DNA of 62,618 bases, counting the filler, from Obrimoposthia wandeli (Eukaryota), in the NCBI GenBank assembly GCA_977020255.1. It is 2 parts of one record of this genome, joined end to end, with 100 filler letters (N's around TTAATTAATTAA, not from the genome) between each part and the next. Parts side by side here need not be neighbours in the genome. Positions count along the whole stretch, not along the records: positions 1 to 30,784 come from CDROCS010001659.1; 1 more part is not named here. One strand, given 5' to 3'. The notes beneath the pieces were generated by a model. The model was given only the letters and a program-made list of their open reading frames with translations. It was not told the DNA's origin and did no database searches. This document shows, in pieces, positions 2,579 through 29,449 of the stretch (positions are counted from its first letter, which is position 1; each line of letters opens with the position of its first letter). Made by a program: the position numbers and the translations under genes.

Positions 2579-2679
2579 GAAAAAATAGGGCAAGGTAATT
2601 TTACTAAGCCTTTTAATTTAACGTAGCCTTTTTTAATTCAAATTCTTCAGTTGAGACTTTTAAACTTCAACTTCCAACT

Positions 2680-5326: not shown

Positions 5327-5945
5327 AGTAGGTGGATGTGTCCGGTCTAATCCACACACCACCCCCACACCCCCTCTGTCCTTTAAAACCATGCATGTGT
5401 GTGGAGTGAAACTTCGAGCATGTGTGTGGAGTGAAATTTCGTGCATGTGTATGGAGTGAAATTTTCTACCCCCTCCCCCACCCACCCAACACTCAAAAAA
5501 CTAATTAACCCCATATAACACCCTTTAAAATTGAAAATCTCATAATGCTCCCAAAAAAGTTAGGAAGGTCCTGGGAGGCCGTTCAGTGGGCCAAAGCGTG
5601 CCCTCCGGACCCGCGGTGGTTTAACGAGCAACACATATACAGGGTCGCGAAAAAATATTTCCATTATAAGAATTTATATCCATACATATATAGATAGGGT
5701 CGCGAAAAATATTTTCGCTATAAGAATTTATATCTAGATACATATATATAGGGTCACAAAAATTTTTAAATTATCAACTACATAAATTGGAAATGATATC
5801 AACATTTTCATTTATTCGGATGAGTTATCGTTGAGTCATAGAATGAGTCATCATGACCTTAAATGACCTTGACCTCATGATGACCTTAAATGACCTTGAC
5901 CTCATGAGGTCATGACCTTAACTTGACCTGAAATGACCTCTGAAA
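5327..5945. repeat. Putative left terminal repeat and origin region of the outer Polinton
   Basis: Starts AGTAGGTGGATGTGTCCGGTCTAATCCAC, homologous to the inner element termini. Three 25-bp iterons GCATGTGTGTGGAGTGAAA (5393-5461), C-rich tracts, three ~55-bp AGGGTC(G/A)C repeats (5641-5765), TGACCT repeat cluster (5853-5940). Candidate TSD TGTATT at 5321-5326 cannot be confirmed because the right end is absent. Confidence 0.75.
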
Positions 5946-6308
5946 AAAATTCTACATTTCAAACATGTACGGTCAAGAAAATATTACTATTTTAAATCAA
6001 AAGATATATATGTATTCAAACATCAACAAAAATTAAGAAAATACTATAAATTATTTGAATAATACGTTCTCATTGGACGTTGAACTTAAGCAACAAAAAC
6101 TTAAGAAAATAATACTATTTTCAAATAAAATATTTTTTTTATCCAATGACATACTCGCATTCAATCGTAGTTAAAAAATTGATAAAAGCCTATGGATTTT
6201 TCAAATAAATTATTTGAATAACCCGCTTTCATTGGACGATAAAAGAGGGTTAGTCTGTTGTTTTTGTATATAAGGAAACCTCTTTTCATTATTTTTCATT
6301 AATCAAGA

Positions 6309-8433
6309 ATGGCAAATTTCAACAACGTCGATTTGGATGAAGAGATGGAGATACATCTATATGGGGTTTTCTCTCCAGTACAGCAGCGAACGCCACCACC
6401 GGCACAGTACATTGACTTACTTAGTCAAGACTCATCGGTGATGAGCGAAGGAGACGAAGGAGAAGCAACAGCAAGAGCTGAGCTGTTGCTAGAAGAACCG
6501 CCATTGGCCAGCTCAACTCCGAGAGAAGAACCAATGAGCGTGAGAGGTGGGATACAGAGATCCCAATATATCGACCTGACTAGTCAGGATTCGATTGAGA
6601 ATTGGGAAGACTGTACTCCCAGGCAAAACACAAAACCCAATCATCCGGCAACTTCAGCAGTAGCAGCAGGGAGATCCAATCTCTTCCAGAATTTTGAGGC
6701 GGCAATCAAATGCCCCTGGAAATTGATCCCGCTGTCTCAGGCGGAGATAGTACTCGCACCAGACTCAGACGAGGAGTTATTCACCGATGACGTTCCGTCG
6801 GATGGTGAGGAGGACTTGACTCCATTCATCGACGAATGGATACAGCCAAGTATCGGAGCCCCAGGAGCCAACAATTCAATGGGGGCAGAATTGGACGAGG
6901 ATGAGTGGCGCCTATTCACCGACGATTGGGATGGTGTCACTCCCTCTACAACTCCAACTCCGATAGCCGACAATACGGTGCCTGATTCATTCAAAAGACC
7001 GCAATCTCCGATATGTCCTGTTAGGAGAATAAAGGCGACGAATGAGTTAGTCTATCAATTTATTTAAAATGTTTTTTAATTTCATTTTTAGAAACTTCAA
7101 CTGGATTTGGCACCCTCAGTGACCACGGTGGAGAGGCTGATTGAACCGCAGTACTTGGCGAGTCAATGTAGCCAGGATGATCCCAGGAGTGATCAGCGAT
7201 ACCTACCGACTCCGGCTAAATTTGAGGTATATTATTATAAATTAGTTAATTATTTTAATTATTCACATAGGAAGCTAAATTGGTGGAGGAAATTTGGGAG
7301 GAGGCAACTCTCAGACTAGGAAACAAGCGGCGGTTAAGAAACCTCGACGCCATTGGGTCAAAACCCACAAGGTCCATCGGAAGAAGGCCAGGTTGGCGAA
7401 ACAGGCTAACCTGCCCGTCATCGAGGTAATTTATTTATATTTTTAAATTGTATTTATGTTTTTTGTTGCAAGAACCAATACAATTAACTGAGGAGACAAT
7501 GGGTAAAATTTCTCCTTTCCCGCAGAAGCAAATGAGGCAGGCTGCTGTACGGAAGACGAAGCGTCTTAGAAAGGCGAAATCTTGTCTGCTCAAATCGAGC
7601 GAAGTAACGATAGAGCGACAGGAAAAACTTCCGTATAAGATTATTGAGGTAAAATTTTAGATATTTAAATATTTTTTATATAAATGAATTTTATTAAAAA
7701 AAATTTATTAATGTTTTCTCTGCAGGAACCTGTCCGGATAATTGAGGAGGCTTGTGGAGAAGTTACTTCTTTCCCTAAGAAAAGGACAAAGCGAGCAGAG
7801 GTGAAGAAGACGAGGCGCTCGAGAAAATGTAACACCTCAATTGGCCATTATTCTGAGGTGGTGATTGGACGGCAGGAGATTATCCCATCTCCAGTAGACG
7901 ACGGTCCAATTTTATACGAGAGGATCCCAGTCTCACCGATCGAGATTAGTCCGCCATCAAGTCAACGACGCCTGCAGGAGACATCACTGGCTTCTCCTCG
8001 TCCAACAACAAGCCAGAACTTAAAGAGGGCCTGGGATGAAGCTGGATTGGACGAATTCCTGGCGGAACTGGATACACCGGCAATGCTTCCAGATTCGCGT
8101 GGGAAACAGGATGCCGTCTCACGCCAGCTTCAGCGTGAGAAGGAGGAGAAACAGAAGAAAGCTCCGCGGAAGAGGAATGCTACTGCTTCTATGTCGGGGC
8201 CATCAACATCGGCTGCACCTCCTCCCAAAATGTTGCGGCAACTATTGCCAAAACCTGAGGGAAGGACAATTGCTACAAAGCAACCGGTGAAACCGAAAAA
8301 GAAACCGGGCCGGCCAAAGAAGAAGGAACCAGTACTGCTTTCTCCTATAATACTTAGTCGGAGGGATTACGACCCGGATGATCCCAATGATAACTTCTTA
8401 AAGATGTTTAAAAATATAATTTATAAACATTAG
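6309..8433 (+). pseudogene. Spliced multi-exon acidic/basic disordered protein of the Polinton, with SIM-like motifs; slightly decayed
   Basis: TATATAAG at 6267. ORF segments 6309-7067, 7092-7226, 7271-7425, ~7472-7648 and 7726-8433 are separated by short AT-rich introns (7227-7270, 7649-7725 with GAG|GT and AG|GAA). A frameshift lies in exon 3 and one acceptor appears mutated. Confidence 0.7.
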
Positions 8434-8706
8434 TTTCATATGTTTTATTGTTATTATTTATTTAAATATCATCTTTAAGTTTATTAAAATATCAACATGA
8501 AAAAAATATTTAATTTATTCGCCTGTGATTGGATTAATAAGGAATCATTGAAATTTTTCAGGTTTAAATATAAATGCAATGATTAGTTATAGATTTATTA
8601 AACTTTCATTTGATACATAAAAATATATCATTTCATTGCTTGTGATTGGATTAAAAATCTCTTAAAGTTATATATATAGGTTCAAATTTATTAACCTCTT
8701 CATAAA

Positions 8707-9030
8707 ATGGAATTCATTAAATTGCAAAGCTTGGTAGCGAAGATAGAAGCAAACATCAGAATAAATTAGAAGAAAGGAGACTTAAGAAAGAGGGTCCTCA
8801 ATCAAAATTTGTATGCTGCTGCCGCGACCGAGTGGAATCGCCGGGTGGAGATACAAGATAGGAGGCTAGCAGAACGACGTTAAATCGTGGAGTGGAATAA
8901 GAAGATCGAATTGGAAAAAAGGAAGTTGGATGAAAAAAAAAGAGAAGAGATGGAGGATATTCGGCGAGCAGCAAGAAAAAAGAATCATCCAGATTAAACC
9001 GGAAGAGGGTCCTTCTACAAAAAAGTAATT
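8707..9030 (+). pseudogene. Decayed small coiled-coil ORF of the Polinton
   Basis: MEFIKLQSLVAKIEANIRIN*...EWNRRVEIQDRRLAERR*IVEWNKKIELEKRKLDEKKREEMEDIRRAARKK with internal stops; TATATATAGG upstream. Confidence 0.5.
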
Positions 9031-9834
9031 TTTTGATTATTATTTTGTCTTTATTGATTAGGTTACATAATTGTCTAAATATTTTACATAATTGTCTAAA
9101 TATTTTACATAAGCATACTAAATATAAACAATTTTATATATAATGTTTTTGTAAAATGGATAATAAAATTTGGAATAAATTATACATATAATTATCTCCA
9201 GATTTAATGGAAGATTATAAAAAAATTACTTTTCAGAAAATGATACCGAGGAAATTGTTGGATATAAATTATGAAATTTAATTTCGAAATATTTAGGTAT
9301 GTTTACATTTAATATAATTTATTTTAATATTCATAGGAGAATTGACAATATATACCAATCTTAACATGAAAGACTGAATACTTTGTTATTTTAATAAATT
9401 TTTGATTTTTTCGTTATAAACAACGGGATTTGCTGCAATTTTAGATAATTATGCTGGAATACATCATAGATTTTGAGGCTTTCATTAACAAATATGGTGA
9501 TTATATTATAAAAGAATTATGTATTATGGATGTATGCGACGTTTTTCATCCTTTGCATTTCATATTTCAAATAGATATCCCGTTTAAAAGTTTAGATTAT
9601 AAGAAAAAATTTACTAATTTATATCTAACTAATTACTTTCATTTATTAAAATGGAAAGAAGGACATAAGGCTTTTTGTGAAATATGTATTTTCGATACAA
9701 TAACATCTAATTTTGATATAGAAAATAGTAGGTAGAAGGATGGAGTCTAAGCCACTTGACCCCCCCCTTAAAGGGTGTTACACCATAAGGGTGTCTTGCC
9801 ACACCATAAGGGTATATGTTGCCTCACCGGAGGT

Positions 9835-9878
9835 GGGAGGGGGAGGGGAGGGGGAGGGGAGGGGGAGGGATAGGGGGG
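9835..9878 (+). other. G-quadruplex-forming tract inside a terminal hairpin (mirrored at 20959-21002)
   Basis: GGGAGGGGGAGGGGAGGGGGAGGGGAGGGGGAGGGATAGGGGGG, lying between inverted copies of the terminal motif (9734-9766 and 9873-9904). Confidence 0.8.
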
Positions 9879-10135
9879 TCAAGTGGCTTTGACTCCATCC
9901 TTCTTTGATATACCACTATGGTCGTCCATAATTCAAAGGGTCAAGTGGCTTAGTCTCCACCCTTCTTTTTGTGATATACCACTATGAAAGGGTCAAGTGG
10001 CTTAGTCTCCACCCTTCTTTTTGTGATATACCACTATGAAAGAGTCAAGTGGCTTAGTCTCCACCCTTCTTTTTGGCTAACCACTATGATCGTCCATAAT
10101 TCAAAGAGTCAAGTGGTCTAGTCTCCACCCTTCTT
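9873..10135. repeat. Subterminal iterons TCAAGTGG(CT/TC)TAGTCTCCACCCTTCT (5 on the left; 7 mirrored at ~20590-20965)
   Basis: Direct ~26-bp repeats related to the terminal motif but in the opposite orientation to the terminal copy. Confidence 0.85.
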
Positions 10136-10723
10136 TGGTATACCACTATGATCGTCCATAATGAAAATTTAGGCTAAAGTTCACTCTTATCAGTCAAGGA
10201 ATGTGGTTTTTAACACACATACACTATTTTATGTGAAATTTAAACTAAAGTTCACTCTTATCAGTTAAGGAATGTATTACGTAATCACACACATACTATT
10301 CTATGTGAAAATTTAGACTAAAGTTTTTCCTAGGCTTACACATTTATAGAATTATGATAAAATTTCTTTAAATAACTTCAATTATATATTAAAATAAAAA
10401 AATAAAATAAGAAAGAAGTCAGAGAATAATACAAAATTAAACACATTTATTATGTAATTTCATAATATCATCTTCAAACTTAAGTGAATAACATTTACAA
10501 AGTAAGAAAGTCCATTCTTTATACATTCTTTTCGTTTCAACGACTAAGTTACAACGGAATTAATAGAAAAAGGAAAAAAAAAAACAACACTAAGTTTAAC
10601 GCTATGAATGAAAATTAGTAAAAATATTAATTTATTTGAATATTCGAATGAGAGTTTGAATAAATGAGAGTTAGAATGAATGTAAATGAATAAAATTATG
10701 CATGCAAGTATGAATGTCATTTA

Positions 10724-11900
10724 CAAGTAAGAGTCTTAGCAAGTGAATGTAATTTAAAAATAAGAGTGTCGATAGTTTGATTGAATGCAAGTGTAATTTA
10801 GACTATAAGTAAATTAAAATAGAGTTTTCATTGGATAAACTATAGTTAGATTGAATGCAAGTATGAATGCAAGTGAATGATAGTATGAATTTCAATACAA
10901 GTAAGTGTCTTAGCAAGTGAATGTAATTTAAAAATAAGAGTGTCGATAGTTTGATTGAATGCAAGTGTAATTTAGACTAAGTAAATTAAAATAGAGTTTT
11001 CATTGGATAAACTATAGTTAGATTGAATGCAAGTATGAATGCAAGTGAATGCTAGTATGAATTTCAATACAAGTAAGTGTCTTAGCAAGTGAATGTAATT
11101 TAAAAAATAAGAGTGTCGATAGTTTGATTGAATGCAAGTGTAATTTAGACTATAAGTAAATTAAAATAGAGTTTTCATTGGATAAACTATAGTTAGATTG
11201 AATGCAAGTATGAATGCAAGTGAATGATAGTATGAATTTCAATACAAGTAAGTGTCTTAGCAAGTGAATGTAATTTAAAAAATAAGAGTGTCGATAGTTT
11301 GATTGAATGCAAGTGTAATTTAGACTATAAGTAAATTAAAATAGAGTTTTCATTGAATAAATTATAGTAAGATTGAATGCAAGTATGAATGCAAGTGAAT
11401 GATAGTATGAATTTCAATACAAGTAAGTGTCTTAGCAAGTGAATGTAATTTAAAAAATAAGAGTGTCGATAGTTTGATTGAATGCAAGTGTAATTTAGAC
11501 TATATGTAAATTAAAATAGAGTTTTCATTGAATAAATTATAGTTAGATTGAATGCAAGTATGAATGCAAGTGAATGATAGTATGAATTTCAATACAAGTA
11601 AGTGTCTTAGCAAGTGAATGTAATTTAAAAAATAAGAGTGTCGATAGTTTGATTGAATGCAAGTGTAATTTAGACTATAAGTAAATTAAAATAGAGTTTT
11701 CGTTGAATAAATTATAGTTAGATTGAATGCAAGTATGAATGCAAGTGAATGATAGTATGAATTTCAATACAAGTAAGTGTCTTAGCAAGTGAATGTAATT
11801 TAAAAAAATAAGAGTGTCGAGAGTTTGATTGAATGCAAGTGTAATTTATATAAGTAAATTAAAATAGAGTTTTCGTTGAATAAATTATAGTTAGATTGAA
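10724..11900 (+). repeat. 175-bp satellite array, ~6.7 copies
   Basis: Unit CAAGTAAGTGTCTTAGCAAGTGAATGTAATTTAAAAAATAAGAGTGTCGATAGTTTGATTGAATGC... recurs every ~175 bp. Confidence 0.95.
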
Positions 11901-13327
11901 TGTAAATGAATACAAGTATACATTCAAGTGAATGCAAATACGAGTAAGAGTTTCAGCAAGTAAATATAAAACTATGAATGAGTGACAGTGAAAATAAGAG
12001 TGTCGATAGTTTGATTGAATGAGAGTGTAATTTAGACTAGAAATAAATTAAAATAGAGTTTTAGTATGAATAAAGTTATGTTAAGTTACAGTTAGATTAA
12101 TAACAAGTAAGCAACTATAGAAAGCAGTGATATTGAAGTATGTTAAAAATTAGAACGACTAAGTTATGGCAAGATTAATAGAAAACAACATCAAATTTGA
12201 CAGTATGAATGAAAATTAGTAAAATATTAATGTATTTGAATGTATTTGAAAGATAGTTTGAATAAATTACAGTTAGATTGAATGCAAATGAATGCAAGTA
12301 TGATTGAATGCAGGGTCAAGTACAAGTAAGAAAGAATACGCAATATGCAAGTACGAATGCCAATTATGAATGAAAATTAGTAAATATATTAATGAATTTG
12401 AATAATTAAAATGTCTTATCTCGTTTGATAAAATTCCTTAATTGAAATATTTTAAAATAATTAGTTTAATTTAAATTCTTTATTTTTTTAAAAATAACTT
12501 GATTATACAATTATATTCGTAAATATAATTAAAATTATCATTATTCGTTTCTCTTTTTAACTATTCGAAACTGTTTTTATATATACAAATTTAGTAAATT
12601 AACTCAACAACAATTTTTTTTTTAATTACTTGATATTTTTGCCATTGTCTTATTAATATAATATGAATATTCAATTTATTTCTTCAAAAATTCATTTTAT
12701 ATGTTAAATAATATTTCTTTACCACATTATTGTGGTTTTATCAAGTGATTTTAACCTTAAACTATAAAAATATTTTAATTATAAAGTTAGTAGCTGTACC
12801 CCGCTCACTGCATATAACATAAATTTCAAATATAAAGTACTATTAAGTTTATTATTTCAAATAGTAAATGTTTTTTTTTCGAGTTATTTAATTTTGTTAC
12901 TAGACATTCGAAAATTTACTTGTAAACATAATATTTTTTTTTTGTTTGTTGCATATTTTCAGTTTAATATGTTGTAAGTTATTCGAACTTGTGTACTTGT
13001 ACAAAATTTGTAGATATTTCAATAATTAAAAGTGATATAAAAGTTAATTATCAAATAATAAATAAAAAAAATAGTTAAATTAAATCTAATTTATGATATT
13101 GAATGCTAAATTCTTCTTTAAAACCAATGTTTAACATGAAATACTTTAAATCAATGGTTTTTTTTTAAAAGTAACTTTATTTAAAACGTATAGGTATATG
13201 ATTGATATAATACAATACTAAACTAATGTAAATTTCTTGTTCAACTATGAATATTTTTAACTTATTTCTTGATTTTTACAACATTTCGAATAGTTTACTT
13301 AATAATCATAATATTAATGATTTGTAC

Positions 13328-14727
13328 GATAAATTGACTTGTAAACATAATTTATTTTACATATATTCATTTAATATATTGTAAGTTAATACTGTAATAT
13401 TTCATTACATAAAAAATTAATTCATAGTTTACTGTCGTTTACAATAAATTGACTTGTAAACAAAATATATTTTCGCATATATTCACTTTAATATGTTGTA
13501 AGTTATTCCTTTAATATAATTTTCAACAAAAACTTCAAGTCGTTTACTTATTAAACATAAGTTTAATGTTTTGTACAATAAATTGACTTGTAAACGTAAT
13601 TTATTTTGGCATATTTTCAATTTAATATATTTTAAGTTATTACTGTAATATTACATTACATAAAAAGTAATTGATAGTTTACTATCGTTTACAATAAATT
13701 GACTTGTAAACATAATATATTTATGCATATATTCACTTTAATATGTTGTAAGTTATTACTTTAATATAATTTACAACAAAAACTTCAAGTAATTTACTTG
13801 TAAACTACAATATTTATTTGTTGTTGTATATATATTCAGTTTAAAATGTTGTAAGTTATTACTTTAATATAATTTACAACCAAATCTTCAAGTAGTTTAC
13901 TTATTAAACATAAGTTTAATGTTTTGTACAATAAATTGACTTGTAAACATAATTTATTTTGGTATATTTTCAATTTAATATGTTGTAAGTTATTACTTTA
14001 ATATAATTTACAACAAAAACTTCAAGTAATTTACTTGTAAACTACAATATTTATTTGTTGTTGTATATATTCAGTTTAAAATGTTGTAAGTTATTACTTT
14101 AATATAATTTTCAACAAAAACTTCAAGTAATTTACTTGTAAACTACAATATTTATTTGTTGTTGTATATATTCAGTTTAAAATGTTGTAAGTTATTACTT
14201 TAATATAATTTACAACCAAAACTTCAAGTAATTTACTTATTAATCATAATTTTAATGATTTGATCAATAAATTGACTTGTAAATATAATATAATTTGCAT
14301 ATTTTCAATTTAATATATTGTAAGTTAATACTGTAATATTTCATTACATAAAAAGTAATTCATAGTTTACTGTCGTTTACTATAAATTTACTTGTAAACA
14401 TAATATATTTATGCATATATTCACTTTAATACGTTTTAAGTTATTAGAATTTGTGTTCTTGTATTCAATGATTAACTTTTATTAAACTATTATATAACAT
14501 TGAAATGTTTAAAATACTTGAGCAAAATAAATTAATATAATAAAAGGATATTAAAATGTATTTTAGTTTAAGATAAAAAATGAGGTTATACGAAGTTAAT
14601 CTAGTTTAAAAACAATTAATACCAAAATTACTTACCAGAATGTGTAAACAACAGTAAACTATTATAACCTACAATAAAGAAACTATTGAATTATAATATA
14701 ACCAATCGTATTCAGTAAGTGATAAAT
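13328..14727. repeat. Central spacer of the palindrome, largely degenerate ~90-130-bp AT-rich repeats
   Basis: Recurrent AATAAATTGACTTGTAAACATAAT...TTAATATGTTGTAAGTTATTAC; no ORF. Confidence 0.75.
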
Positions 14728-17700
14728 GTACAAATCATTAATATTATGATTATTAAGTAAACTATTCGAAATGTTGTAAAAATCAAGAAATAAGTTAAAA
14801 ATATTCATAGTTGAACAACTCATAACTGAAATTTACATTAGTTTAGTATTATATCAATCATATACCTATACGTTTTAAATAAAGTTACTTTTAAAAAAAA
14901 ACCATTGATTTTTAAGTATTTCATGTTAAACATTGGTTTTAAAGAAGAATTTAGCATTGCAATATCATAAATTAGATTTAATTTAACTATTTTTTATTTA
15001 TTATTTGATAATTAACTTTTATATCGCTTTTAATTATTGAAATATCTACAAATTTTGTACAAGTACACAAGTTCGAATAACTTACAACATATTAAACTGA
15101 AAATATGCAACAAACAAAAAAAAATATTATGTTTACAAGTAAATTTTCGAATGTCTAGTAACAAAATTAAATAACTCGAAAAAAAAACATTTACTATTTG
15201 AAATAATAAACTTAATAGTACTTTATATTTGAAATTTATGTTATATGCAGTGGGCGGGGTACAGCTACTAACTTTATAATTAAAATATTTTTATAGTTTA
15301 AGGTTAAAATCACTTGATAAAAACCACAATAATGTGATAAAGAATATTATTTAACATATAAAATGAATTTTTGAAGAAATAAATTGAATATTCATATTAT
15401 ATTAATAAGACAATGGCAAAAATATCAAGTAATTAAAAGAAAAAATTGTTGTTGAGTTAATTTACTAAATTTGTATATATAAAAACAGTTTCGAATAGTT
15501 AAAAAGAGAAACGAATAATGATAATTTTAATTATATTTACGAATATAATTGTATAATCAAGTTATTTTAAAAAAAATAAAGAATTTAAATTAAACTAATT
15601 ATTTTAAAATATTTCAATTAAGGAATTTTATCAAACGAGATAAGACATTTTAATTATTCAAATTCATTAATATATTTACTAATTTTCATTCATAATTGGC
15701 ATTCGTACTTGCATATTGCGTATTCTTTCTTACTTGTACTTTACCCTGCATTCAATCATACTTGCATTCATTTGCATTCAATCTAACTGTAATTTATTCA
15801 AACTATCTTTCAAATACATTCAAATACATTAATATTTTACTAATTTTCATTCATACTGTCAAATTTGATGTTGTTTTCTATTAATCTTGCCATAACTTAG
15901 TCGTTCTAATTTTTAACATACTTCAATATCACTGCTTTCTATAGTTGCTTACTTGTTATTAATCTAACTGTAACTTAACATAACTTTATTCATACTAAAA
16001 CTCTATTTTAATTTATTTCTAGTCTAAATTACACTCTCATTCAATCAAACTATCGACACTCTTATTTTCACTGTCACTCATTCATAGTTTTATATTTACT
16101 TGCTGAAACTCTTACTCGTATTTGCATTCACTTGAATGTATACTTGTATTCATTTACATTCAATCTAACTATAATTTATTCAACGAAAACTCTATTTTAA
16201 TTTATTTATAGTCTAAATTACACTTGCATTCAATCAAACTATCGACACTCTTATTTTTTAAATTACATTCACTTGCTAAGACACTTACTTGTATTGAAAT
16301 TCATACTATCATTCACTTGCATTCATACTTGTATTAAATCTAACTATAATTTCGATTCATTCACTTGAAAACTCTATTTTAATTTACTTATTCAGCATTC
16401 TCAAATTATTCACGAAAACTTATTTTAATTTACTTATAGCTAAATTCACTTGCATTCAAACTATCGACACTCTTATTTTTTAAATTACATTCACTTGATA
16501 AGACACTTACTTGTATTGAAATTCATACTATCATTCACTTGCATTCATACTTGCATTCAATCTAACTATAATTTATTCAACGAAAACTCTATTTTAATTT
16601 ACTTATAGTCTAAATTACACTTGCATTCAATCAAACTATCGACACTCTTATTTTTTTAAATTACATTCACTTGCTAAGACACTTACTTGTATTGAAATTC
16701 ATACTATCATTCACTTGCATTCATACTTGCATTCAATCTAACTATAATTTATTCAACGAAAACTCTATTTTAATTTACTTATAGTCTAAATTACACTTGC
16801 ATTCAATCAAACTATCGACACTCTTATTTTTTTAAATTACATTCACTTGCTAAGACACTTACTTGTATTGAAATTCATACTATCATTCACTTGCATTCAT
16901 ACTTGCATTCAATCTAACTATAATTTATTCAATGAAAACTCTATTTTAATTTACTTATAGTCTAAATTACACTTGCATTCAATCAAACTATCGACACTCT
17001 TATTTTTTTAAATTACATTCACTTGCTAAGACACTTACTTGTATTGAAATTCATACTATCATTCACTTGCATTCATACTTGCATTCAATCTAACTATAAT
17101 TTATTCAACGAAAACTCTATTTTAATTTACTTATAGTCTAAATTACACTTGCATTCAATCAAACTATCGACACTCTTATTTTTTAAATTACATTCACTTG
17201 CTAAGACACTTACTTGTATTGAAATTCATACTATCATTCACTTGCATTCATACTTGCATTCAATCTAACTATAATTTATTCAACGAAAACTCTATTTTAA
17301 TTTACATATAGTCTAAATTACACTTGCATTCAATCAAACTATCGTCACTCTTATTTTTTAAATTACATTCACTTGCTAAGACACTTACTTGTATTGAAAT
17401 TCATACTATCATTCACTTGCATTCATACTTGCATTCAATCTAACTATAATTTATTCAATGAAAACTCTATTTTAATTTACTTATAGTCTAAATTACACTT
17501 GCATTCAATCAAACTATCGACACTCTTATTTTCACTGTCACTCATTCATAGTTTTATATTTACTTGCTGAAACTCTTACTCGTATTTGCATTCACTTGAA
17601 TGTATACTTGTATTCATTTACATTCAATCTAACTATAATTTATTCAACGAAAACTCTATTTTAATTTATTTATAGTCTAAATTACACTTGCATTCAATCA

Positions 17701-20700
17701 AACTCTCGACACTCTTATTTTTTAAATTACATTCACTTGCTAAGACACTTACTTGTATTGAAATTCATACTAGCATTCACTTGCATTCATACTTGCATTC
17801 AATCTAACTATAATTTATTCAACGAAAACTCTATTTTAATTTACTTATAGTCTAAATTACACTTGCATTCAATCAAACTATCGACACTCTTATTTTTTAA
17901 ATTACATTCACTTGCTAAGACACTTACTTGTATTGAAATTCATACTATCATTCACTTGCATTCATACTTGCATTCAATCTAACTATAATTTATTCAACGA
18001 AAACTCTATTTTAATTTACTTATAGTCTAAATTACACTTGCATTCAATCAAACTATCGACACTCTTATTTTTTAAATTACATTCACTTGCTAAGACACTT
18101 ACTTGTATTGAAATTCATACTATCATTCACTTGCATTCATACTTGCATTCAATCTAACTATAATTTATTCAACGAAAACTCTATTTTAATTTACTTATAG
18201 TCTAAATTACACTTGCATTCAATCAAACTATCGACACTCTTATTTTTTAAATTACATTCACTTGCTAAGACACTTACTTGTATTGAAATTCATACTATCA
18301 TTCACTTGCATTCATACTTGCATTCAATCTAACTATAATTTATTCAACGAAAACTCTATTTTAATTTACTTATAGTCTAAATTACACTTGCATTCAATCA
18401 AACTATCGACACTCTTATTTTTTAAATTACATTCACTTGCTAAGACACTTACTTGTATTGAAATTCATACTATCATTCACTTGCATTCATACTTGCATTC
18501 AATCTAACTATAATTTATTCAACGAAAACTCTATTTTAATTTACTTATAGTCTAAATTACACTTGCATTCAATCAAACTATCGACACTCTTATTTTTTAA
18601 ATTACATTCACTTGCTAAGACACTTACTTGTATTGAAATTCATACTATCATTCACTTGCATTCATACTTGCATTCAATCTAACTATAATTTATTCAACGA
18701 AAACTCTATTTTAATTTACTTATAGTCTAAATTACACTTGCATTCAATCAAACTATCGACACTCTTATTTTTAAATTACATTCACTTGCTAAGACACTTA
18801 CTTGTATTGAAATTCATACTATCATTCACTTGCATTCATACTTGCATTCAATCTAACTATAATTTATTCAACGAAAACTCTATTTTAATTTACTTATAGT
18901 CTAAATTACACTTGCATTCAATCAAACTATCGACACTCTTATTTTTTTAAATTACATTCACTTGCTAAGACACTTACTTGTATTGAAATTCATACTATCA
19001 TTCACTTGCATTCATACTTGCATTCAATCTAACTATAATTTATTCAACGAAAACTCTATTTTAATTTACTTATAGTCTAAATTACACTTGCATTCAATCA
19101 AACTATCGACACTCTTATTTTTTAAATTACATTCACTTGCTAAGACACTTACTTGTATTGAAATTCATACTATCATTCACTTGCATTCATACTTGCATTC
19201 AATCTAACTATAATTTATTCAATGAAAACTCTATTTTAATTTACTTATAGTCTAAATTACACTTGCATTCAATCAAACTATCGACACTCTTATTTTTAAA
19301 TTACATTCACTTGCTAAGACACTTACTTGTATTGAAATTCATACTATCATTCACTTGCATTCATACTTGCATTCAATCTAACTATAATTTATTCAACGAA
19401 AACTCTATTTTAATTTACTTATAGTCTAAATTACACTTGCATTCAATCAAACTATCGACACTCTTATTTTTTAAATTACATTCACTTGCTAAGACACTTA
19501 CTTGTATTGAAATTCATACTATCATTCACTTGCATTCATACTTGCATTCAATCTAACTATAATTTATTCAATGAAAACTCTATTTTAATTTACTTATAGT
19601 CTAAATTACACTTGCATTCAATCAAACTATCGACACTCTTATTTTTTAAATTACATTCACTTGCTAAGACACTTACTTGTATTGAAATTCATACTATCAT
19701 TCACTTGCATTCATACTTGCATTCAATCTAACTATAATTTATTCAACGAAAACTCTATTTTAATTTACATATAGTCTAAATTACACTTGCATTCAATCAA
19801 ACTATCGACACTCTTATTTTTAAATTACATTCACTTGCTAAGACACTTACTTGTATTGAAATTCATACTATCATTCACTTGCATTCATACTTGCATTCAA
19901 TCTAACTATAATTTATTCAATGAAAACTCTATTTTAATTTACTTATAGTCTAAATTACACTTGCATTCAATCAAACTATCGACACTCTTATTTTTAAATT
20001 ACATTCACTTGCTAAGACTCTTACTTGTAAATGACATTCATACTTGCATGCATAATTTTATTCATTTACATTCATTCTAACTCTCATTTATTCAAACTCT
20101 CATTCGAATATTCAAATAAATTAATATTTTTACTAATTTTCATTCATAGCGTTAAACTTAGTGTTGTTTTTTTTTCCTTTTTCTATTAATTCCGTTGTAA
20201 CTTAGTCGTTGAAACGAAAAGAATGTATAAAGAATGGACTTTCTTACTTTGTAAATGTTATTCACTTAAGTTTGAAGATGATATTATGAAATTACATAAT
20301 AAATGTGTTTAATTTTGTATTATTCTCTGACTTCTTTCTTATTTTATATTTTTATTTTAATATATAATTGAAGTTATTTAAAGAAATTTTATCATAATTC
20401 TATAAATGTGTAAGCCTAGGAAAAACTTTAGTCTAAATTTTCACATAGAATAGTATGTGTGTGATTACGTAATACATTCCTTAACTGATAAGAGTGAACT
20501 TTAGTTTAAATTTCACATAAAATAGTGTATGTGTGTTAAAAACCACATTCCTTGACTGATAAGAGTGAACTTTAGCCTAAATTTTCATTATGGACGATCA
20601 TAGTGGTATACCAAAGAAGGGTGGAGACTAGACCACTTGACTCTTTGAATTATGGACGATCATAGTGGTTAGCCAAAAAGAAGGGTGGAGACTAGACCAC

Positions 20701-21108
20701 AAAAAGAAGGGTGGAGACTAAGCCACTTGACTCTTTCATAGTGGTATATCACAAAAAGAAGGGTGGAGACTAAGCCACTTGACCCTTTCATAGTGGTATA
20801 TCACAAAAAGAAGGGTGGAGACTAAGCCACTTGACCCTTTGAATTATGGACGACCATAGTGGTATATCAAAGAAGGGTGGAGACTAAGCCACTTGACCCT
20901 TTGAATTATGGACGACCATAGTGGTATATCAAAGAAGGATGGAGTCTAAGCCACTTGACCCCCCTATCCCTCCCCCTCCCCTCCCCCTCCCCTCCCCCTC
21001 CCACCTCCGGTGAGGCAACATATACCCTTATGGTGTGGCAAGACACCCTTATGGTGTGACACCCTTTAGGGGGGTTCAAGTGGCTTAGACTCCATCCTTC
21101 TACCTACT
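14728..21108 (-). repeat. Right inverted arm of the inner element (~6.4 kb, enlarged by satellite expansion)
   Basis: Mirror of the left arm with scattered substitutions, more iterons and about three times as many 175-bp units. Confidence 0.9.
16170..20035 (-). repeat. 175-bp satellite array in inverted orientation, ~21 copies, interrupted at ~17525-17625
   Basis: AACGAAAACT at 17821 and 18171 are 350 bp apart (2 x 175). The interruption duplicates the array boundary sequence at ~16045-16170. Confidence 0.95.
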
Positions 21109-21556
21109 GAAAATGGATTTTTTATGTTTTAGATGAAATGGATGGCAAAAAATATAAGACTTTAAAAAAATATTTTCCCAAATTGAGGTTGAATACTTTA
21201 AATATTTCACGTGATCATCTATTAAAAATTCCACGAAATATTTGCTGTCCATATCGTAATCATGGTGACCATTGCGCATATAAAAAATGTTTAAGTCTTT
21301 CTTATTATTACTTGACATGTAGATAAACAATTCTTCTAATTGGAGAAATTCATTATTAAAATTTTACATCTAATTACAAATAAGCCTTTTGATTGGAGGA
21401 ATAAAAATATTTTTTTAAACTAATAACAGATAAACAATCCTTCTCAGTGGAGGGATAAATTCAATTTTTTAATCCAATAGGAAAAGAGCATGTGTGCATA
21501 AATTTTAGTATATAAGCAAACACTTTCTTCATTTAAATCCCCGACAATTTGAAATA

Positions 21557-22799
21557 ATGACTATGGTAAGAATCTATACTTATTATTTCCTTATTAATAT
21601 TTATTAATATTTATTATTTCAGATTACTTGTATCCTGTTTCCAGCATATTGTGGTGCTTCGGATCCGCATGGAGGAGAGACTTGCATGGAGATAATGTCC
21701 GCCTACTATCGGACAAAGTCTCGCGGGCTTCACTTCTTCGTCTGCCTCTTCTGCAGAACAATGGAGGAGAAGGAGTTTCGAGACTTCTTCGGTGAACATC
21801 GAGCTCATCTATCGTGTTTCACGGCCAACAACAAGAAGAGGGATATCGTGCAATTGGTGCACGATTCGCAGGCCGCTCCAGCTACTGCTCCAATTCCAGT
21901 TGCAGTTGATCAACCCTTTTACGGTCCTGCCATTGATCCTTCTGTCCCGGCTCCTGATTCTGCTGCTGCCCCATCCACTCAAATGACTAACAATGAGTGG
22001 ATGAATGACATCTCCGAAGAAGATTTTGAGGAGTTGGCCCCAGCAACCCAATTCTTGAACAATGACTGGATGGAAAATATCACCCAGTCAGATTTCGAGA
22101 TAGAGCAGCCTCAGTGGAGCGATAACTCTTGGTTGGAGACCATCGAGGAATCCGATTTCGTCGAGATAACGGACGACAGCTGGATGGATTTCATAAATGA
22201 AGAGGACTTCATTCCAGCTCCAGTTGGATTGCCTTCATTAGGTATTTTTTATTATTATTTTTTAAAATTGTAATTATATATATTATTGTAATTATATATA
22301 TTTGAATTTTATTTTTTATTCAGGAAATACCGTGATACAATGGTCATCCGCTACGACAGCTATGCCTCTCCCATCGCGAGTGCCTACATCGATGTTAGCA
22401 CGTCTTAGAGGTAATAATTTAAAAATATATTTATTTTTTAATATATTTATTTCAGCAGCATCAGCCTCTACAACGGCCGCTTCTTCATCGGCAAGGTCAG
22501 CTTCTACCATGCTTACTCCAACTTCAAATGCAGCCTCTACAACTGCCACTGTTTCATCATCTGCGGCAGCATCTATTACAGCAGCATCGTCTACACCAGC
22601 TGCGATTGCCTCAACATCGGCAGCTTTACCAATAGCAGCACCTTCAATCTCAGCTGCGTTTGTGTCAACTGTTAATATAAATAGTTGTCTTCCCGTTCAA
22701 TTAGTGGGAGGTTTGTCAGCAACTGTAGGAAGAAAGAGGCGAGGCCAATTTCTTAATAAGGTCCCACCAAAAAACGTAGAGAAAACGGTGTTACTATAG
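21557..22799 (+). CDS. Spliced Polinton protein: Cys/His cluster, four W-x3-I-x3-DF acidic repeats and an Ala/Ser linker; possibly the N-terminal extension of pPolB
   Basis: TATATAAG at 21509. Exons 21557-21565, 21623-22241, 22324-22410 and 22456-22799 join in frame through GT-AG introns of phase 0, 1 and 1. Confidence 0.75.
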
Positions 22800-22834
22800 A
22801 GTATCACCTAAATAATAAATATGTTATAGTTAAG

Positions 22835-25800
22835 GTGCCATTAGGAAATGAAATTTTATTAAACGTAGGTGAAGATTCAAATATTGAAAATCTTTTAAAA
22901 TCAGAAGTGACTAAATTAGGACAGGCTAAGGTTCAATTTTGTGCAACAGTGCAGTTTAAAAATGTCAATGAGGAGACTAAAACTTGGGTAATTTCACATA
23001 AAGCAACTGTTTTCGATGATAATTTTGTAACTGAAATTGGAAGAAACCTAGATGAAAAATTGCTAATTATAGCGAGTTAAGTAGTGGATGGAATCTAGTT
23101 AGAATTCACGATGTTAGCTTTGTTCTAACAAAGTTCACTGACATGATATATCTTTCGGGGAGTTCATACATTCCTTCACCTAGATCTCTTCAACTTTCAC
23201 GTTCCATTGTTAACATACAAAACAGTGATAACCTTTGCTTTCTGTATAGCGTGTTGGCCATCCTCTAAAGGGGTGTAATTACTGAACATAGAGAGCGTGT
23301 CAGTAAATATACCCTTTTTTAAATGAATTGCAGTATCATGGAATAGATTTTCCTGTTAAATTAACTGCGATATCAAGATTTGAACATCTTAATAACTTGA
23401 GTATTAATGTATTCAAATATAATACTGATATCCCAGTTAATGTAACAGATGAAGAAATATTTAAAAATCCTTTTGTAGATGTAATTTATAGGAGCAAAAA
23501 TGAGGGGACTCAGGTCAACTTAATTTTGTTCGAACAGAATAATAAATTCCATTATGCTGCAATTCCCAGTTTAGATCGTCTTCTAAATTTAGATAATGGA
23601 GCCTTACCATAAGGTGTAAGTGGTGTCATAGATGTTTGCATGGATTCCGATCAGAGCTCTCTTACAGCAAACATCTGACATTATGTTCACTGAATCCTGA
23701 TGACAATACGCTATACAGCATGCCTAAGGATAAGGATTTAAATTCAGGGATTGGGCAAAATGCATACCCGTGGAATTCAGGGTGTTTGCAGATTTTGAGT
23801 CAATTTTAGCATTGCACGACCAGTATGAGAGTATTCACCTACCGGCTTCGGCAGGACTACTATTCTTAGGCCCCAATATTACACAGTATCATAAATTTTC
23901 CGGTCCAAATTGTATTTTAGATTTTATGTTAAAATTAGAAGAATTAGGAACAACAATTGTCAAACCGTGGTATGATCTCAATGCTCATCAAGCAATGATC
24001 ATGACAGGCAAAGACTGGGTTAATTTTAATTCTTGTAGATTATGTTATTTGTGTGGAACCCAGTCTAAGTTAGTCAGAGATCACGATCATGTTACGGGGC
24101 GATACTTGGGAGCGGCGTGCAACCTCTGTAACCTTGGCCGTCGTCTCCCTAAAAAACCACGCATTTCCATCGTGTTTCATAACCTCAAAGGATATGATTT
24201 GCATCATATACTTAAATATGCGTTGGGTACATTAAGCTCTTGGGAAATTTCTTGTATACCTCAAACTTCAGAGAAATATTTATCTTTAACTGCATATACT
24301 GAATTCTGTAGTTTAAGATTCATAGATTCTCTGCAGTTTTTGAGCGAGTCTTTAAAAAATTTAACGGCATCTTTAAATGCATGGCCAATCACACAGTCAG
24401 TGTTCTCAGCTTCGGTTAATGATAAGGGGATTTTTCCGTATAAATTTGCAAAAACCTTTGCAGATTTAGAAAATACTACAGAAATCCCACCCATAACTGA
24501 ATTTGAAAGTCAAGACTATAATGAGGCCCGTACTATTTGGACGAATAATTGTCGAAATCTTCTTGAATATATGCTTTATTATATGAAATTAGACATTTAT
24601 CTTTTAGCTGATGTTTTTGAGTCCTTTCGTGTAAAGTCTTTAGCAGAATATGGGCTAGATCCCATGCATTTCTTTAGTTTACCTGGTCTTTCATGGGCAA
24701 CAGCAATAAAAACTCTTAAAATTAATATCGAGTTACTGCAAGATCCCGTGATGTATCAAATGTATGATTATGGTATACGCAGTGGAATGACTTTTGTCAA
24801 CAAACATCATGTTGTCAAAAATCAATCCACGGAGATTCTGTACATCGACATTAATAATTTGTATGGGTGGGCGCTTACTCAACCTCTACCTCATGCCAAC
24901 TTTAAGTGGGTTTATGATGAGGAAGAGTTGAATAAGTTGAAGATAGATTTGGCTACTGTCGATACAGTTTCATCAGATATCGGCTATTTGGTTGAGGTTG
25001 ACTTAACAATCCCTCCCAATGTGCATGATAAATTAGATGATCTTCCAGTAGCGCCTGTTCATCAATGCCCACCTAATTCAAAGGTTAAGAAATTATTGTT
25101 AACCCATGAAGACAAGTTGAATTATGTTGTGCATTGGCGGCTTCTTCAATTCTACTTAAAGTTGGGAGCGAAAGTTACTCGAATTCATCGTGCTATAAGC
25201 TTCAGTCAAAACTTTGTGTTTAAAGACTATATTGAGAAGAATTCTAGAAAACATAATTTGGCCACTAGAAAATTCGAACGGGATTTTTACAAGTTAAAAA
25301 GTAATAGCCTCTTTGGAAAAACTATAAGCTTCAGTCAAAACTTTGTGTTTAAAGACTATATTGAGAAGAATTCTAGAAAACATGACTAGAAAATTCGTTT
25401 TTACAAGCCTCTTTGGAAAAACTGTAGAGGACTTGCGGAAACGTGTTTGTCTACGGTTTTGCAATGATGAGCGTAAACTAATAACATATACTAGTAAGTA
25501 CAACTTCAAGCGTAGTTTTACAATTGCAGATGACTTGGTAGCAGTGTTATTAGGAAAACAGAGTATTTGTCTCGATCGACCGAGTTATATAGGTCAAACG
25601 GTTTTAGACATTTCTAAACTCAGAATGTATGAGCTTCAATACATAGAATTGGAGAAATACCGACAAGAATTTAATTGTGAGATTAAAATCGCAGCTGGGG
25701 ACACTGACTCTTTCTTTTTAGAATGTAGGAATGTTAGTTTAAATAATCAATTATTACCAGCAATGTTTACGGACAACTTACTAGATATCCATAAATATCC

Positions 25801-26167
25801 CGCTAACCATCCTCTACACTCTATGAGTTTAAAGGATATTATCGGGAAATTTAAGGATAAAAGCGAGGGACAGGTTTCGTATGATCATTGTATTTTCCTA
25901 TGCCCTAAATGCTACAGTTTACATGCATCTAATAATACATGTTCAATGAGAGCAAAGGGTGTGGGAAGAAACAATCTTACACATGAGGCCTACCGGAAAG
26001 TTTATGATACTGGGTGTATTGAAAGCGTTGAGCAAACTAGATTTATTTCAAAAGCCCATCAACTGTATTCCCATAAATCAACAAAAATCGCTTTGAGTAG
26101 TAATGACGACAAGCGCTTTTGGGTAGAAAAGAACGCTAGCCTGGCTTATGGACACTTCCGAATTTAA
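22835..26167 (+). pseudogene. polB: Protein-primed family B DNA polymerase (pPolB) with vOTU-like, Zn-finger and endonuclease VII domains; frameshifted
   Basis: GSSYIP...IVNIQNSDNLCFLYSVLA and HYAAI (vOTU-like); CHRC...HLTLC; FADFES (Exo I); RDHDHVTGRYLGAACNLCNL (EndoVII); YIDINNLYG (motif A); YKLKSNSLFGKT (motif B); GDTDSFF (motif C). Stops, frameshifts and an internal duplication are present. Confidence 0.95.
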
Positions 26168-26433
26168 ACGGTTTTCATTTTTTGATATTTTTAGTTTAGT
26201 TTTTAAAAAACTTTAGATCCCTATGGCACCTTGACTCTAACGTTTTGTTATTTCAAAACATTTTTTAGGATGGACCTTATCTTTGCTGACAGATCTCATT
26301 GTGATGTTGTTTTTAATAAATGTATTAAAAAAAATTTCGTCTTATGTCTTTTATTATTTTACCCTTATATTTTTAAGGATTTAAAATAAATAATTCAAAA
26401 TAAAACATCAAAAATATTTATTTTTATAACACA

Positions 26434-26814
26434 CTAATCGTTTTGCAACGATAACCATAAAATACATAAATGTCCACAGTTTCTCGTCGCAGGATCCTGA
26501 TATTGTATCTTGTTGTAAAATACTCTTCTTCGTCCTTTTTGAATAGTTGAAACATGTTTGTGTGGATAATATATTGCAAGTGGATCAAATACATGGATTG
26601 TCCACTCTCTAACATAAATAGCTATCCAATGTTCTCCTGGTAAATTCGAAGTATGAGTATTGATAATGTATCCTCCAGATTGAAAAAATGGAATCATATT
26701 AATAGGATAAAGTCCATTGAATTTATCACCCAAGACCTTCTCTGCTGATTCTTGTACTTGTACTGAACTAAATAAAAATTAATAAATATAAATTTAAAAT
26801 ATGTCTTACTCCAT
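26434..26814 (-). CDS. Adenain-like (C5) cysteine protease with a 42-nt intron
   Basis: NTHTSNLPGEHWIAIY, FDPL, QYQDPATRNCGHLC. Exon 1 ATGGA (26814-26810), intron GTAAG...TTTAG (26809-26768); exon 2 is in frame with the ORF. Confidence 0.88.
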
Positions 26815-26815
26815 T

Positions 26816-28014
26816 CTATAATATGACAGTTCTGTTTTTATTGATTTGTATTTCCGAATCAAATACTCCGTAAATAAGCACCGTAGTAGGATTTGTTAAA
26901 GCTGCATTGAACTTAATTTCTAGTCGTAAATTTCCATCCTTTGGTAGTTGGCATTGGTTTATATCAAAGTCTGGTTCCAAAACAAATGTGAAGAACGGGC
27001 AGCTGTTTTTAAAGTCAGTGAAAGAAATACCATTGTTTATATTTTTATCTAGTTGACCCAAATTCCGAATAATAGATTGCGTATAAGCCAAAGCATAAGC
27101 GTTACCTTCGAAATCTGTTTTATATGTTTCGCGATAATCAGTATTTCTTGAAAGTGTCACTGAACCTACATTAAGATTGTCAAATTGAGTTGCATCTGTC
27201 GTATAATTTCCTAGATACTTTGCAGTTTTTTGAAAAGAAATTAAAATTAATTTCGGTAATCTTACATCACCAAAAATGTGATCCTTATTAAAAGCTTGTG
27301 TAAAGAATAGGATATAAGTTTAGTTTCTCTAATAGGATAACAAGCATTGTTTTTTTCCATTTCTATATTATGTGCCATTAAAACTGATTGCTCGGTTTTA
27401 ACTCTTCGGACATACAATTTTGCATCCAAAATATCAAATCTAGGTTTTAGAACGTCTGTGCTTATCAAAGAAAAATTCCATTTATTACGTTTCAAACGAA
27501 GATGTACATTAACACCGGAAATTAAATATTTCGGTTGTTCAAAGAAATTCAATCTCAAAGACCCACACATTTCGTAAGCTTTAGAACCTGCAATCCATTC
27601 TTTGCGAGTTGCGACCGTTTTATCATAACCAATGGTTGCCAAATTAGAATTTTGAGTATCAGTACTATAATTCAAAAGACTTTCAATCAAAGCTTTATGA
27701 GCATAGGAAGAATTTCCACCTTCAATTTTGACAATATTAAGAATAACAATAGCATCACTAAATAAAGAATTAAAGAGATAATTTACAGGTGTTACATCTG
27801 CATTTTCATCTAAATTAGTACCATCCCGATTTAATACTTTCATTTGAACATAAAGCAACGTATCATTCAAATCTAAATACTCGATATTGGAACCATTAAT
27901 ATTAAATTCTAAATCGGTTAAAGTGGTTCCTGAAACTGAGTTAACTAGAAATATTTCTTCAAAGAAAGCATTATCTACAACTACTTGTGGAAATGGATTT
28001 TCAAAAATACACAA
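26816..28014 (-). pseudogene. Polinton double jelly-roll major capsid protein, one frameshift near 27300
   Basis: CIFENPFPQVVVDNAFFEEIF...LEFNINGSNIEYLDLNDTLLYVQMKV...LYVRRVK; C-terminus GNLRLEIKFNAALTNPTTVLIYGVFDSEIQINKNR. The shifted frame TQAFNKDHIFGDVRLPKL links the two ORFs. Confidence 0.9.
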
Positions 28015-28031
28015 TTTGGTTTTGGCGCAAC

Positions 28032-28409
28032 TTATTTTGTAAATATTGTTTCTTCAACTTTCTTACGTGTGTTTATATTATTTTTTACTTCTTTTTTACG
28101 TTTAAATTCACTACCTTTTTGGCTTTTATTTGATTTACCATTTTTAATCAAATTAGCAACGTCAGGTAAAGCATTATCAAGTTCATCAAGTGCATGCTTC
28201 TTAAAAGTTGGTATTAGTTTATTGTCCTTAGATGAAAGGTAATCCTTTCCTAATTTTGATATAAATAGCCCGAGTCTCTTTAAAAGAGGAAAGGCAAATC
28301 TACCTAATGTTCTAAGCCAGCCAGATCCATATTGTTTACCAACAAAATATGGTAATTCTCCACCTTGTTGGCTTTGACTATAAGCTTCAATTATTGCTGG
28401 ATTCGTCAT
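28032..28409 (-). CDS. Small basic core/pX-like Polinton protein
   Basis: YFVGKQYGSGWLRTLGRFAFPLLKRLG (QxGxG plus amphipathic helix) with a Lys-rich tail; lies between the minor and major capsid genes. Confidence 0.75.
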   Translation of the reverse strand: MTNPAIIEAYSQSQQGGELPYFVGKQYGSGWLRTLGRFAFPLLKRLGLFISKLGKDYLSSKDNKLIPTFKKHALDELDNALPDVANLIKNGKSNKSQKGSEFKRKKEVKNNINTRKKVEETIFTK

Positions 28410-28414
28410 TTTGT

Positions 28415-29009
28415 TTTTTTCAATGTATTGTTAAACTTGTCTTGGCCCCGTACGTGAAATCTATTAGTTGTCCGGAATCATCTCTAATATTTACTTCAAT
28501 ATTGTTTATAGAAAAGAGAGAAACTGGAAGATACATTGGTATACACATACCGACAGCGTCCCCATATTTAGATTCATTTTTAGATATCCATATTGTTTCA
28601 AAAGTGGAACTCGCTGTCCGCCTACAAGCGTTGGTTCTATTAAATTAGTATAAATATATAAATGATTAACAGCATTTAAAAGTTTTGCCTTATTTTTAGC
28701 TTTTATGGTTTTTATTGTATGGGTTTCAAAGGTATTTCTGTTTAAACCAAGGTTTTTAGCGAGTTTATCATCAAATAAAACTCGTATTATATTGCTCTTT
28801 ACTGTAAACGTTATTTTATTATTTTTTAATGTTACACAATAATCGAAATATTCACTACATTCCTTCTGTATTAATTTACAGAAATTCACTTCACTATCTA
28901 ATTTATAATCTTTTGAAAATATTTTCTGTTCCACTACATACTTTGGTCTCGTTTCAACTAAAAACACTTTTGTTACTCTGTCAGGAATATTTTTAAACGA
29001 AAGTATCAC
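28415..29009 (-). pseudogene. Minor capsid (penton) protein, one frameshift near 28598
   Basis: LYIYTNLIEPTLVGGQRVPLLK, then in the shifted frame YLPVSLFSINNIEVNIRDDSGQLIDF...SLTIH. Confidence 0.85.
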
Positions 29010-29059
29010 TATTGTTTATATATAAAATAAAATAATACAAATAAAGACACAAAAAGTTA

Positions 29060-29449
29060 TTAGTCAACTCTAACAACATCAATTATTTTCCATATCGGAG
29101 TTTCCAATCCACTGGGCCCGATCTTGCATCCTTGAATTCTGATTGAGAGAATCCATTCTAGTTTAGGAGGAGGTCCTTCGTATATTGTTCCATTCTCATG
29201 CTTGAAAGTGGCTGTTGATTCTTTGATTACGAATTTGTTTTCCTGAAGCGCATAGTTGATTCCGAATTGAGTCAAGAGAATATTGATTCTCTCTTAATCC
29301 ACAGAAGTCAAATTTGATATTTCAAAATCAAATTTAAGCGGCTCGATGTTGACGGGAAAAATAAAAGTATAGTTATGAGCTTTCTTCAAAAAGTGCATCT
29401 CATATCCATAATATGTATGCATAGGTTGATATAGCTTTTCAAAATTCAT
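29060..29449 (-). pseudogene. Hypothetical ~130-aa beta-rich Polinton protein with one internal stop
   Basis: An in-frame ATG at 29449 (MNFEKLYQPMH...) reads through one TAA into ORF 29275-29060 (WILSIRIQGCKIGPSGLETPIWKIIDVVRVD). Confidence 0.5.

Follow-up and report, generated by a model that had tools for sequence, protein, structure and literature searches.

Tetris of Drosophila virilis is a foldback element with TIR-220 repeats whose unit number varies between arms and alleles; the accessible part of the report on it also gives arms of up to 1.7 kb, target-site duplications of 8-10 bp and a proven expansion into long satellite arrays (PMC4079207). As for Polintons/Mavericks, their terminal arms are reported as 46-1,500 bp (PMC8097293; PMC10748475), intact vertebrate Mavericks span 12.7-24.6 kb and end in the motif (AGT)2 (PMC8097293), and the 6-bp length of the Polinton duplication is shared by IS3EU and GingerRoot, whose ends are TA..TA or TG..CA (PMC10045372), all as given in the accessible sections of these sources. 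Here, we describe a gene-less foldback element that carries a 175-bp tandem repeat in both of its arms, found in a 62,618-nucleotide window (the whole stretch of DNA analysed, filler included) from the genome of Obrimoposthia wandeli (assembly GCA_977020255.1). Our favoured explanation, which we regard as probable rather than secure, is that the two arrays form an internal tandem-repeat module of a non-autonomous foldback that depends on Polintons/Mavericks, and that they lie within its long inverted arms. Tandem arrays were called by Tandem Repeats Finder (TRF), and the inverted arrangement was determined by self-BLAST of the window. The 175-bp units were counted by cutting the arrays at one fixed anchor, a regular unit being one of 173-176 bp with 0-4 substitutions relative to the commonest unit. 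The element, its parts and the sequence that received it are as follows:

9727..21108, no strand assigned: whole gene-less foldback, 11,382 bp, termini AGTAG...CTACT (self-BLAST, ends, frame scan)
9721..9726, plus strand: left copy of the 6-bp target-site duplication GAAAAT
21109..21114, plus strand: right copy of the 6-bp target-site duplication GAAAAT
9727..13327, plus strand: left arm, 3,601 bp (self-BLAST)
14728..21108, minus strand: right arm, inverted, 6,381 bp (self-BLAST)
9734..10162, plus strand: subterminal zone with a (GGAGGG)n tract and 52/62-bp repeats
10764..11997, plus strand: left 175-bp array of 7 units, six regular and one divergent 186-bp end unit (TRF, anchor cut)
13328..14727, no strand assigned: spacer, 1,400 bp, AT-rich (about 18% GC), no gene
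5327..30784, no strand assigned: outer decayed Polinton/Maverick that received the foldback, with its left end AGTAGG at 5327 and its right end lost at 30785
9445..9726, plus strand: interrupted gene, 5' part (matching positions 9-96 of the 185-position profile, E 7e-35)
21111..21323, plus strand: interrupted gene, 3' part (matching positions 100-167 of the profile, E 4e-17)

The GAAAAT duplication lies flush against both ends of the foldback, AGTAGG and CCTACT, in this single copy. These ends share 5/6 letters with the vertebrate Maverick motif (AGT)2//(ACT)2. For the first 30 bases of the foldback, the best match outside the element (21/30) falls at 5327, the left end of the outer Polinton, and the runner-up on both strands reaches 18/30. 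Because 6 bp is the length of Polinton duplications and the ends of IS3EU and GingerRoot differ, these data point to integration of the Polinton type. IS3EU/GingerRoot membership itself was ruled out, the foldback termini being AG..CT and not TA..TA or TG..CA. Judged from the sequence, the foldback splits one gene of the outer Polinton. A full HMMER search returned 127 relatives of the frame ending at 9726, and the gene profile, built from the 77 of them that are 140-200 amino acids (aa) long, matched both parts of the gene, the best remaining frame among the 1,307 frames of the window giving E 0.2. In addition, the 3' part was matched singly by 35/77 homologues. A word-indexed search with the 5' part among longer proteins gave 0/20 candidates. 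The interrupted gene belongs to a family of ~160-aa proteins, for which Pfam named 0/12 homologues above its cut-off and Atlas offered a Maelstrom match (score 0.88) that is a weak lead only.

No gene lies inside the foldback, and it is therefore at most a non-autonomous Polinton derivative. The frame scan found no stop-to-stop frame of at least 100 aa in it and 23 of at least 60 aa, the longest of 86 aa, so that polymerase, integrase and capsid genes are absent. Rfam had no match in 9700-21200, and an exact-motif scan of metagenome contigs with the terminal 29-mer of the foldback gave 0 matches. The element resembles Polintons/Mavericks in its 6-bp duplication, its AGT-type end motif, its terminal inverted repeats and a terminus related to that of the adjacent Polinton. 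Unlike an autonomous Polinton, however, it has no polymerase, integrase or capsid gene, its arms measure 3,601 and 6,381 bp, and its total length is 11,382 bp as against 13-25 kb. Polinton derivatives without PolB, and polintons with ~2-kb arms, have been described in butterflies (bioRxiv 10.1101/2025.02.07.637071); according to the accessible portion of that preprint, the derivatives share non-autonomous mobility and long arms with the foldback, but they retain capsid or other genes or cargo, of which the foldback has none. Another Polinton-linked tandem repeat is LmiSat34-299, a satellite of the migratory locust that, in the sections accessible, resembles Polinton coding sequence (PMC4935994), whereas the repeat of the foldback is non-coding and lies within the arms. 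Our literature search, which excluded most subscription journals and Repbase, found no description of a gene-less, Maverick-ended foldback with satellite-like arrays; PMC12628747, PMC11410931, PMC6431247, PMC12694884 and PMC12910113 contained nothing relevant. Short non-autonomous Polintons are present in Repbase.

The two arms together make up 88% of the foldback. Outside the arrays they differ by 4 substitutions/1,037 bp and 6/1,330 bp (99.5% alike), and their modules follow one another in the order terminal motif, G-rich tract, 52/62-bp repeats, 71-bp repeats, 175-bp array and AT-rich inner part. The right arm has additionally gained short subterminal repeat units, the number of which differs between the arms; within the 52/62-bp repeats, the terminal motif recurs in inverted orientation 5 times on the left and 6 times on the right. 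These subterminal motif copies are candidate protein-binding iterons. The (GGAGGG)n tract is located at 9829-9877 and 20959-21008, 100 bp inside the termini and between two inverted terminal-motif copies, and could form a G-quadruplex or a hairpin loop. The spacer has tandem repeats of its own (~100-115 bp), which are related to the inner-arm segment 12912-13001 and continue into the inner end of the arm at 13250-13327. This layout is like that of Tetris as far as the accessible part of its report goes: there, too, modular arms (outer flanking, tandem-repeat and inner domains) surround a non-coding middle, the unit being AT-rich and ~200 bp long, and long arrays are more homogeneous than short ones. 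The foldback departs from Tetris in its arms of 3.6 and 6.4 kb, its 6-bp duplication and its AG..CT ends, and expansion beyond the element was not seen in the window. Overall, it works like Tetris but is not a member, because its duplication is 6 bp and not 8-10 bp.

TRF placed the 175-bp arrays at 10656-12083 in the left arm (8.1 copies, 93% matches) and at 16406-20095 in the right arm (21.0 copies, 96% matches), and self-BLAST showed them to be mutually inverted inside the larger inverted repeat. Cutting at the anchor gave 7 units on the left and, at 16062-19987, 22 units on the right (19 regular, two divergent 189-bp end units and one irregular 222-bp unit), which bears out the ~6.7 left and ~21 inverted right copies of a preliminary description of this DNA. 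The high homogeneity it claimed for the right-arm units was also found: regular units differ by a mean of 0.92 substitutions per pair in the right arm (171 pairs) versus 2.47 in the left (15 pairs), and by 2.35 between left and right (114 pairs). Moreover, two variants common to three left units are present in 0/22 right units, indicating arm-specific turnover of the arrays. Each array has a homogeneous centre and degenerate edges. Degenerate unit-like sequence borders both of them, on the left reaching 10656 and 12330, and a 150-bp block is present on either side of the array at 80% identity, which suggests that the 175-bp repeat may have grown in place within the arm. The 6-bp duplication, the gene split in two and the very high depth in 4/4 runs (see below) indicate that the foldback is mobile. 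Thus, the earlier view that the arrays reside in a mobile element stands, but calling this element a vehicle for a satellite probably puts the matter backwards, because the degenerate flanks suggest that the repeat arose inside the arm. The unit, which is rich in short motifs (TGAAT x7, CAAGT x5), had furthermore been presented as nucleosome-length; no 10-11-bp dinucleotide periodicity rose above that of shuffles, the observed values being reached by 724, 315 and 584 per 1000 shuffles. An exact-motif scan of viral contigs with a 25-mer of the unit gave 0 matches.

Read evidence was taken from four runs (X1-X4) of one sample, all in the form of short-read contigs, which contain 0.80-0.81 of the words of 8800-15700; the run with the highest share may be the one from which the assembly was made. 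Depth was computed over 4400-10939 from contigs with at least 90% likeness. Summed contig depth of this kind does not equal copy number, as overlapping short contigs inflate the value, and the host-flank bins of X1 and X2, where cover was low or absent, were excluded from the evidence. The host flank had a contig depth of about 41 in X3 and 4-5 in X4, while in X3 it reached 0.9-2.7 million in the bins of the outer Polinton and 1.8-2.5 million in those of the foldback arm. The naive ratios of outer Polinton to host flank (33,500 and 66,600) support only the statement that the sequence is very abundant, of the order of ten thousand. Foldback arm depth was 1.5 and 2.6 times the outer-Polinton depth. 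The jump in depth occurs in bin 5272-5489, at the outer Polinton left end 5327.

The depth of one 175-bp unit, a rough measure taken from the last bin of the 4400-10939 stretch, was higher than the mean of the two adjacent arm bins by factors of 3.75, 4.10, 5.11 and 3.07 in X1-X4, respectively. If the whole family were built like the copy at 9727-21108, a unit:arm ratio of 14.7 would be expected. Because the ratio is 3.1-5.1 and not 14.7, typical arms probably carry few 175-bp units, a hint that also leaves little room for a large free-standing satellite. The proposed seeding of free satellite DNA is conceivable in principle, on the model of Tetris, but gained no support in the window, where no unit-like sequence was found outside the element 9727-21108. 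Read as 3-5 units per arm, the depth ratio implies that typical foldback copies are near or below 8 kb. Among the joints listed, contigs in 4/4 runs join 9355 to the first base of the foldback, 9727; the short side of this joint has 28-31 letters, and in X3 its depth is about 35-fold that of the host flank. This joint possibly records a further insertion into a Polinton copy or a deletion next to one. At 9414-9631, over the 5' part of the interrupted gene, depth is 2-3 times that of the neighbouring outer-Polinton bins, which suggests that several families have this gene in common.

Under our favoured explanation, a Polinton integrase of the same genome would recognise the foldback ends and integrate the element in trans, as the ends and the duplication suggest. 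The 175-bp unit would have arisen through duplication inside the arm, and its number would drift by unequal exchange or slippage of misaligned units, in each arm independently, while the remainder of the arms stays matched. Typical copies would accordingly bear only a few units per arm, and the 22-unit right array would be an outlier consisting of two arrays end to end, the outcome of either a genuine unequal exchange or an assembly join. The number of units would serve no dedicated function, such as the setting of a packageable length. Polintons are modelled as being copied through a panhandle formed by the terminal arms; our literature search on panhandle copying returned nothing on point. 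Polinton-like copying through such a two-arm panhandle would keep the arms alike and let misaligned units loop out, and could thereby explain why matched arms carry unmatched repeat counts.

Several points weigh against this explanation. It is built on one whole copy, a second full-length copy, an empty site and a mobilising integrase not having been found, and the scan of 19 + 13 frames turned up neither an integrase nor an ATPase gene. The depth values derive from the contigs of a single sample at that likeness threshold, with the unit in the last bin, and the 3-5 ratio is a hint. The stretch over which depth was computed ends at 10939, before the spacer, and the abundance of the arms could belong to an autonomous long-armed Maverick of which this copy is a one-off deletion. 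Lastly, the 6-bp duplication was seen once, in AT-rich DNA, and could be chance-assisted, though it is flush with both ends.

The unit count of the right array is a separate matter. This array consists of block A (14 units) followed in tandem by block B (8 units):

17526..19987, minus strand: block A, 13 regular units and a divergent 189-bp end unit (17526-17714)
16062..17525, minus strand: block B, six regular units, an irregular 222-bp unit and a second 189-bp end unit (16062-16250)
16251..16600, minus strand: irregular stretch in which small deletions are dense and private 21-mers numerous, a suspected low-quality assembly segment

The two 189-bp end units differ by 1 substitution and both blocks open with the same two variant types; by its make-up, block B resembles a second whole array. 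The 21-mers unique in the window amount to 108/175 at 16251-16425 and 51/175 at 16426-16600, as compared with 0-21/175 in the other 22 of the 24 bins of 15901-20100, and such private k-mers favour a low-quality segment, at least locally. Two arrays that had undergone unequal exchange would leave this block pattern, and so would an assembly join. On sequence grounds there is a hint of assembly expansion, and the exact right-arm count is doubtful.

The alternative that survives best takes the asymmetry to be largely an assembly artefact, in which block A or B was joined on through the repeat from a different haplotype or family copy, the real right array having ~7-14 units. We consider this quite conceivable, though we lean slightly away from it; it is compatible with the favoured explanation and touches the unit count only. 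It would account for an end unit duplicated in mid-array, for blocks that start alike and close with near-identical end units, for the 350-bp segment dense in small deletions and private 21-mers, and for a family-wide unit:arm ratio of only 3-5, and an N gap is present 10 kb away. However, the 14 units of block A are by themselves twice those of the left arm, variants of the unit (A5/A6/A7 tract, single changes) reappear in a pattern as they do in real arrays, the A5 form is the first unit in both arms, and unequal exchange would leave an identical block pattern.

A more distant alternative derives the foldback from an autonomous Maverick by copy-back (snap-back): a 5-kb non-coding end together with its array would have been copied back on itself, and the high arm depth would come from the ends of the autonomous family. 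The long near-perfect arms round a short spacer, and the entry of the spacer repeats into the inner end of the arm (13250-13327), would fit such an origin, and an arm depth of 1.5-2.6 times that of the outer Polinton is explicable by either kind of copy. Nevertheless, we regard it as unlikely: there is no coding remnant anywhere in the foldback, no parent was found, and published Maverick arms are, in the accessible parts of the sources, mostly 46-1,500 bp long and about 2 kb in butterflies.

An equally small likelihood attaches to the idea that the foldback is a gene-less parasite of a Polinton virus, like a copy-back defective genome. It would be copied by the protein-primed polymerase of its helper via a multi-kilobase panhandle, reach a helper-like copy number (of the order of ten thousand by raw depth) and repeatedly insert into helpers and disable their genes, its arrays changing length by panhandle mispairing. 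If this were true, Polinton replication would directly drive both the evolution of satellite-like arrays and the growth of a flatworm genome.

We give little credence to the reading in which the element is an ordinary foldback, belongs to a cut-and-paste superfamily (FB/Galileo/Tetris or Mutator type) and resembles Polintons at its ends by coincidence; the anatomy does correspond to Tetris domain for domain, but Tetris duplications are 8-10 bp long and those here 6 bp, and the terminus matches the end of the neighbouring Polinton. Least probable of all, and close to negligible, is the adjustable stuffer of the preliminary description, with unit number tuned to a length that the helper Polinton capsid can package: the ends are of the Polinton type, the outer element has a capsid-like gene and 11.4 kb is near the lower bound of intact Maverick sizes (12.7 kb in the accessible text of PMC8097293), but this copy is still shorter than both the outer Polinton (14.07 kb or more once the insert is subtracted, even with its right part missing) and the 12.7-24.6 kb of intact vertebrate Mavericks (PMC8097293), a 7+7-unit copy would measure 8.6 kb and the depth suggests still fewer units (3-5 per arm, hence typical copies near or below 8 kb and no sign of length matching), the array grew in one arm only, and there is no virion or packaging evidence.

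To return to the favoured explanation, unequal tandem arrays in foldback arms are already known from Tetris, and the asymmetry seen here is ordinary and possibly inflated by assembly. The carrier is more unusual: a foldback several kilobases long, devoid of genes and with Maverick-type ends, which is apparently about as abundant as the coding Polinton family around it. If the family is confirmed, it would offer a natural way to test whether Polinton packaging depends on length. In that case it may also explain part of the Maverick-labelled DNA that is expanded in some planarian genomes, a DNA/Maverick expansion having been reported for Dugesia planarians in the accessible part of a preprint (10.64898/2025.12.11.693146).

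The outer Polinton is truncated by a 100-bp gap spacer at 30785-30884 (44 N, 12 letters, 44 N), which we read as an assembly break. It contains a fragmented, frameshifted protein-primed polymerase at 22760-26167 (pPolB PF03175, E 4e-29), which found no relative among viral contigs. A ~100-bp direct duplication (25193-25407) sits at the break that separates the two large polymerase frames. For another frame, the nearest Atlas clusters are double-jelly-roll capsid-like (0.97, a lead), and a PDB sequence search with this capsid-like frame gave 0 matches. The outer Polinton also has a weak, protease-like adenain match (E 0.054) and carries a BIR (inhibitor of apoptosis) gene.

Elsewhere in the window, a 129-bp tandem repeat occupies 44693-45345 (5.1 copies, 98% alike); it is open in several frames and has weak DUF matches. 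Exons of a hillarin/KY-like host gene were found at 56451-57679, the part at 56972-57679 having 17 matches, of which all 14 named ones are flatworm proteins (48-70% identity), which makes a flatworm host probable. Short arrays of 48/100-bp and 64-bp units lie at 2348-2973 and are bracketed by direct repeats at 1167-1413 and 3816-4069 that are 70% alike. The arrays and repeats of 1167-4069 are perhaps another small element.

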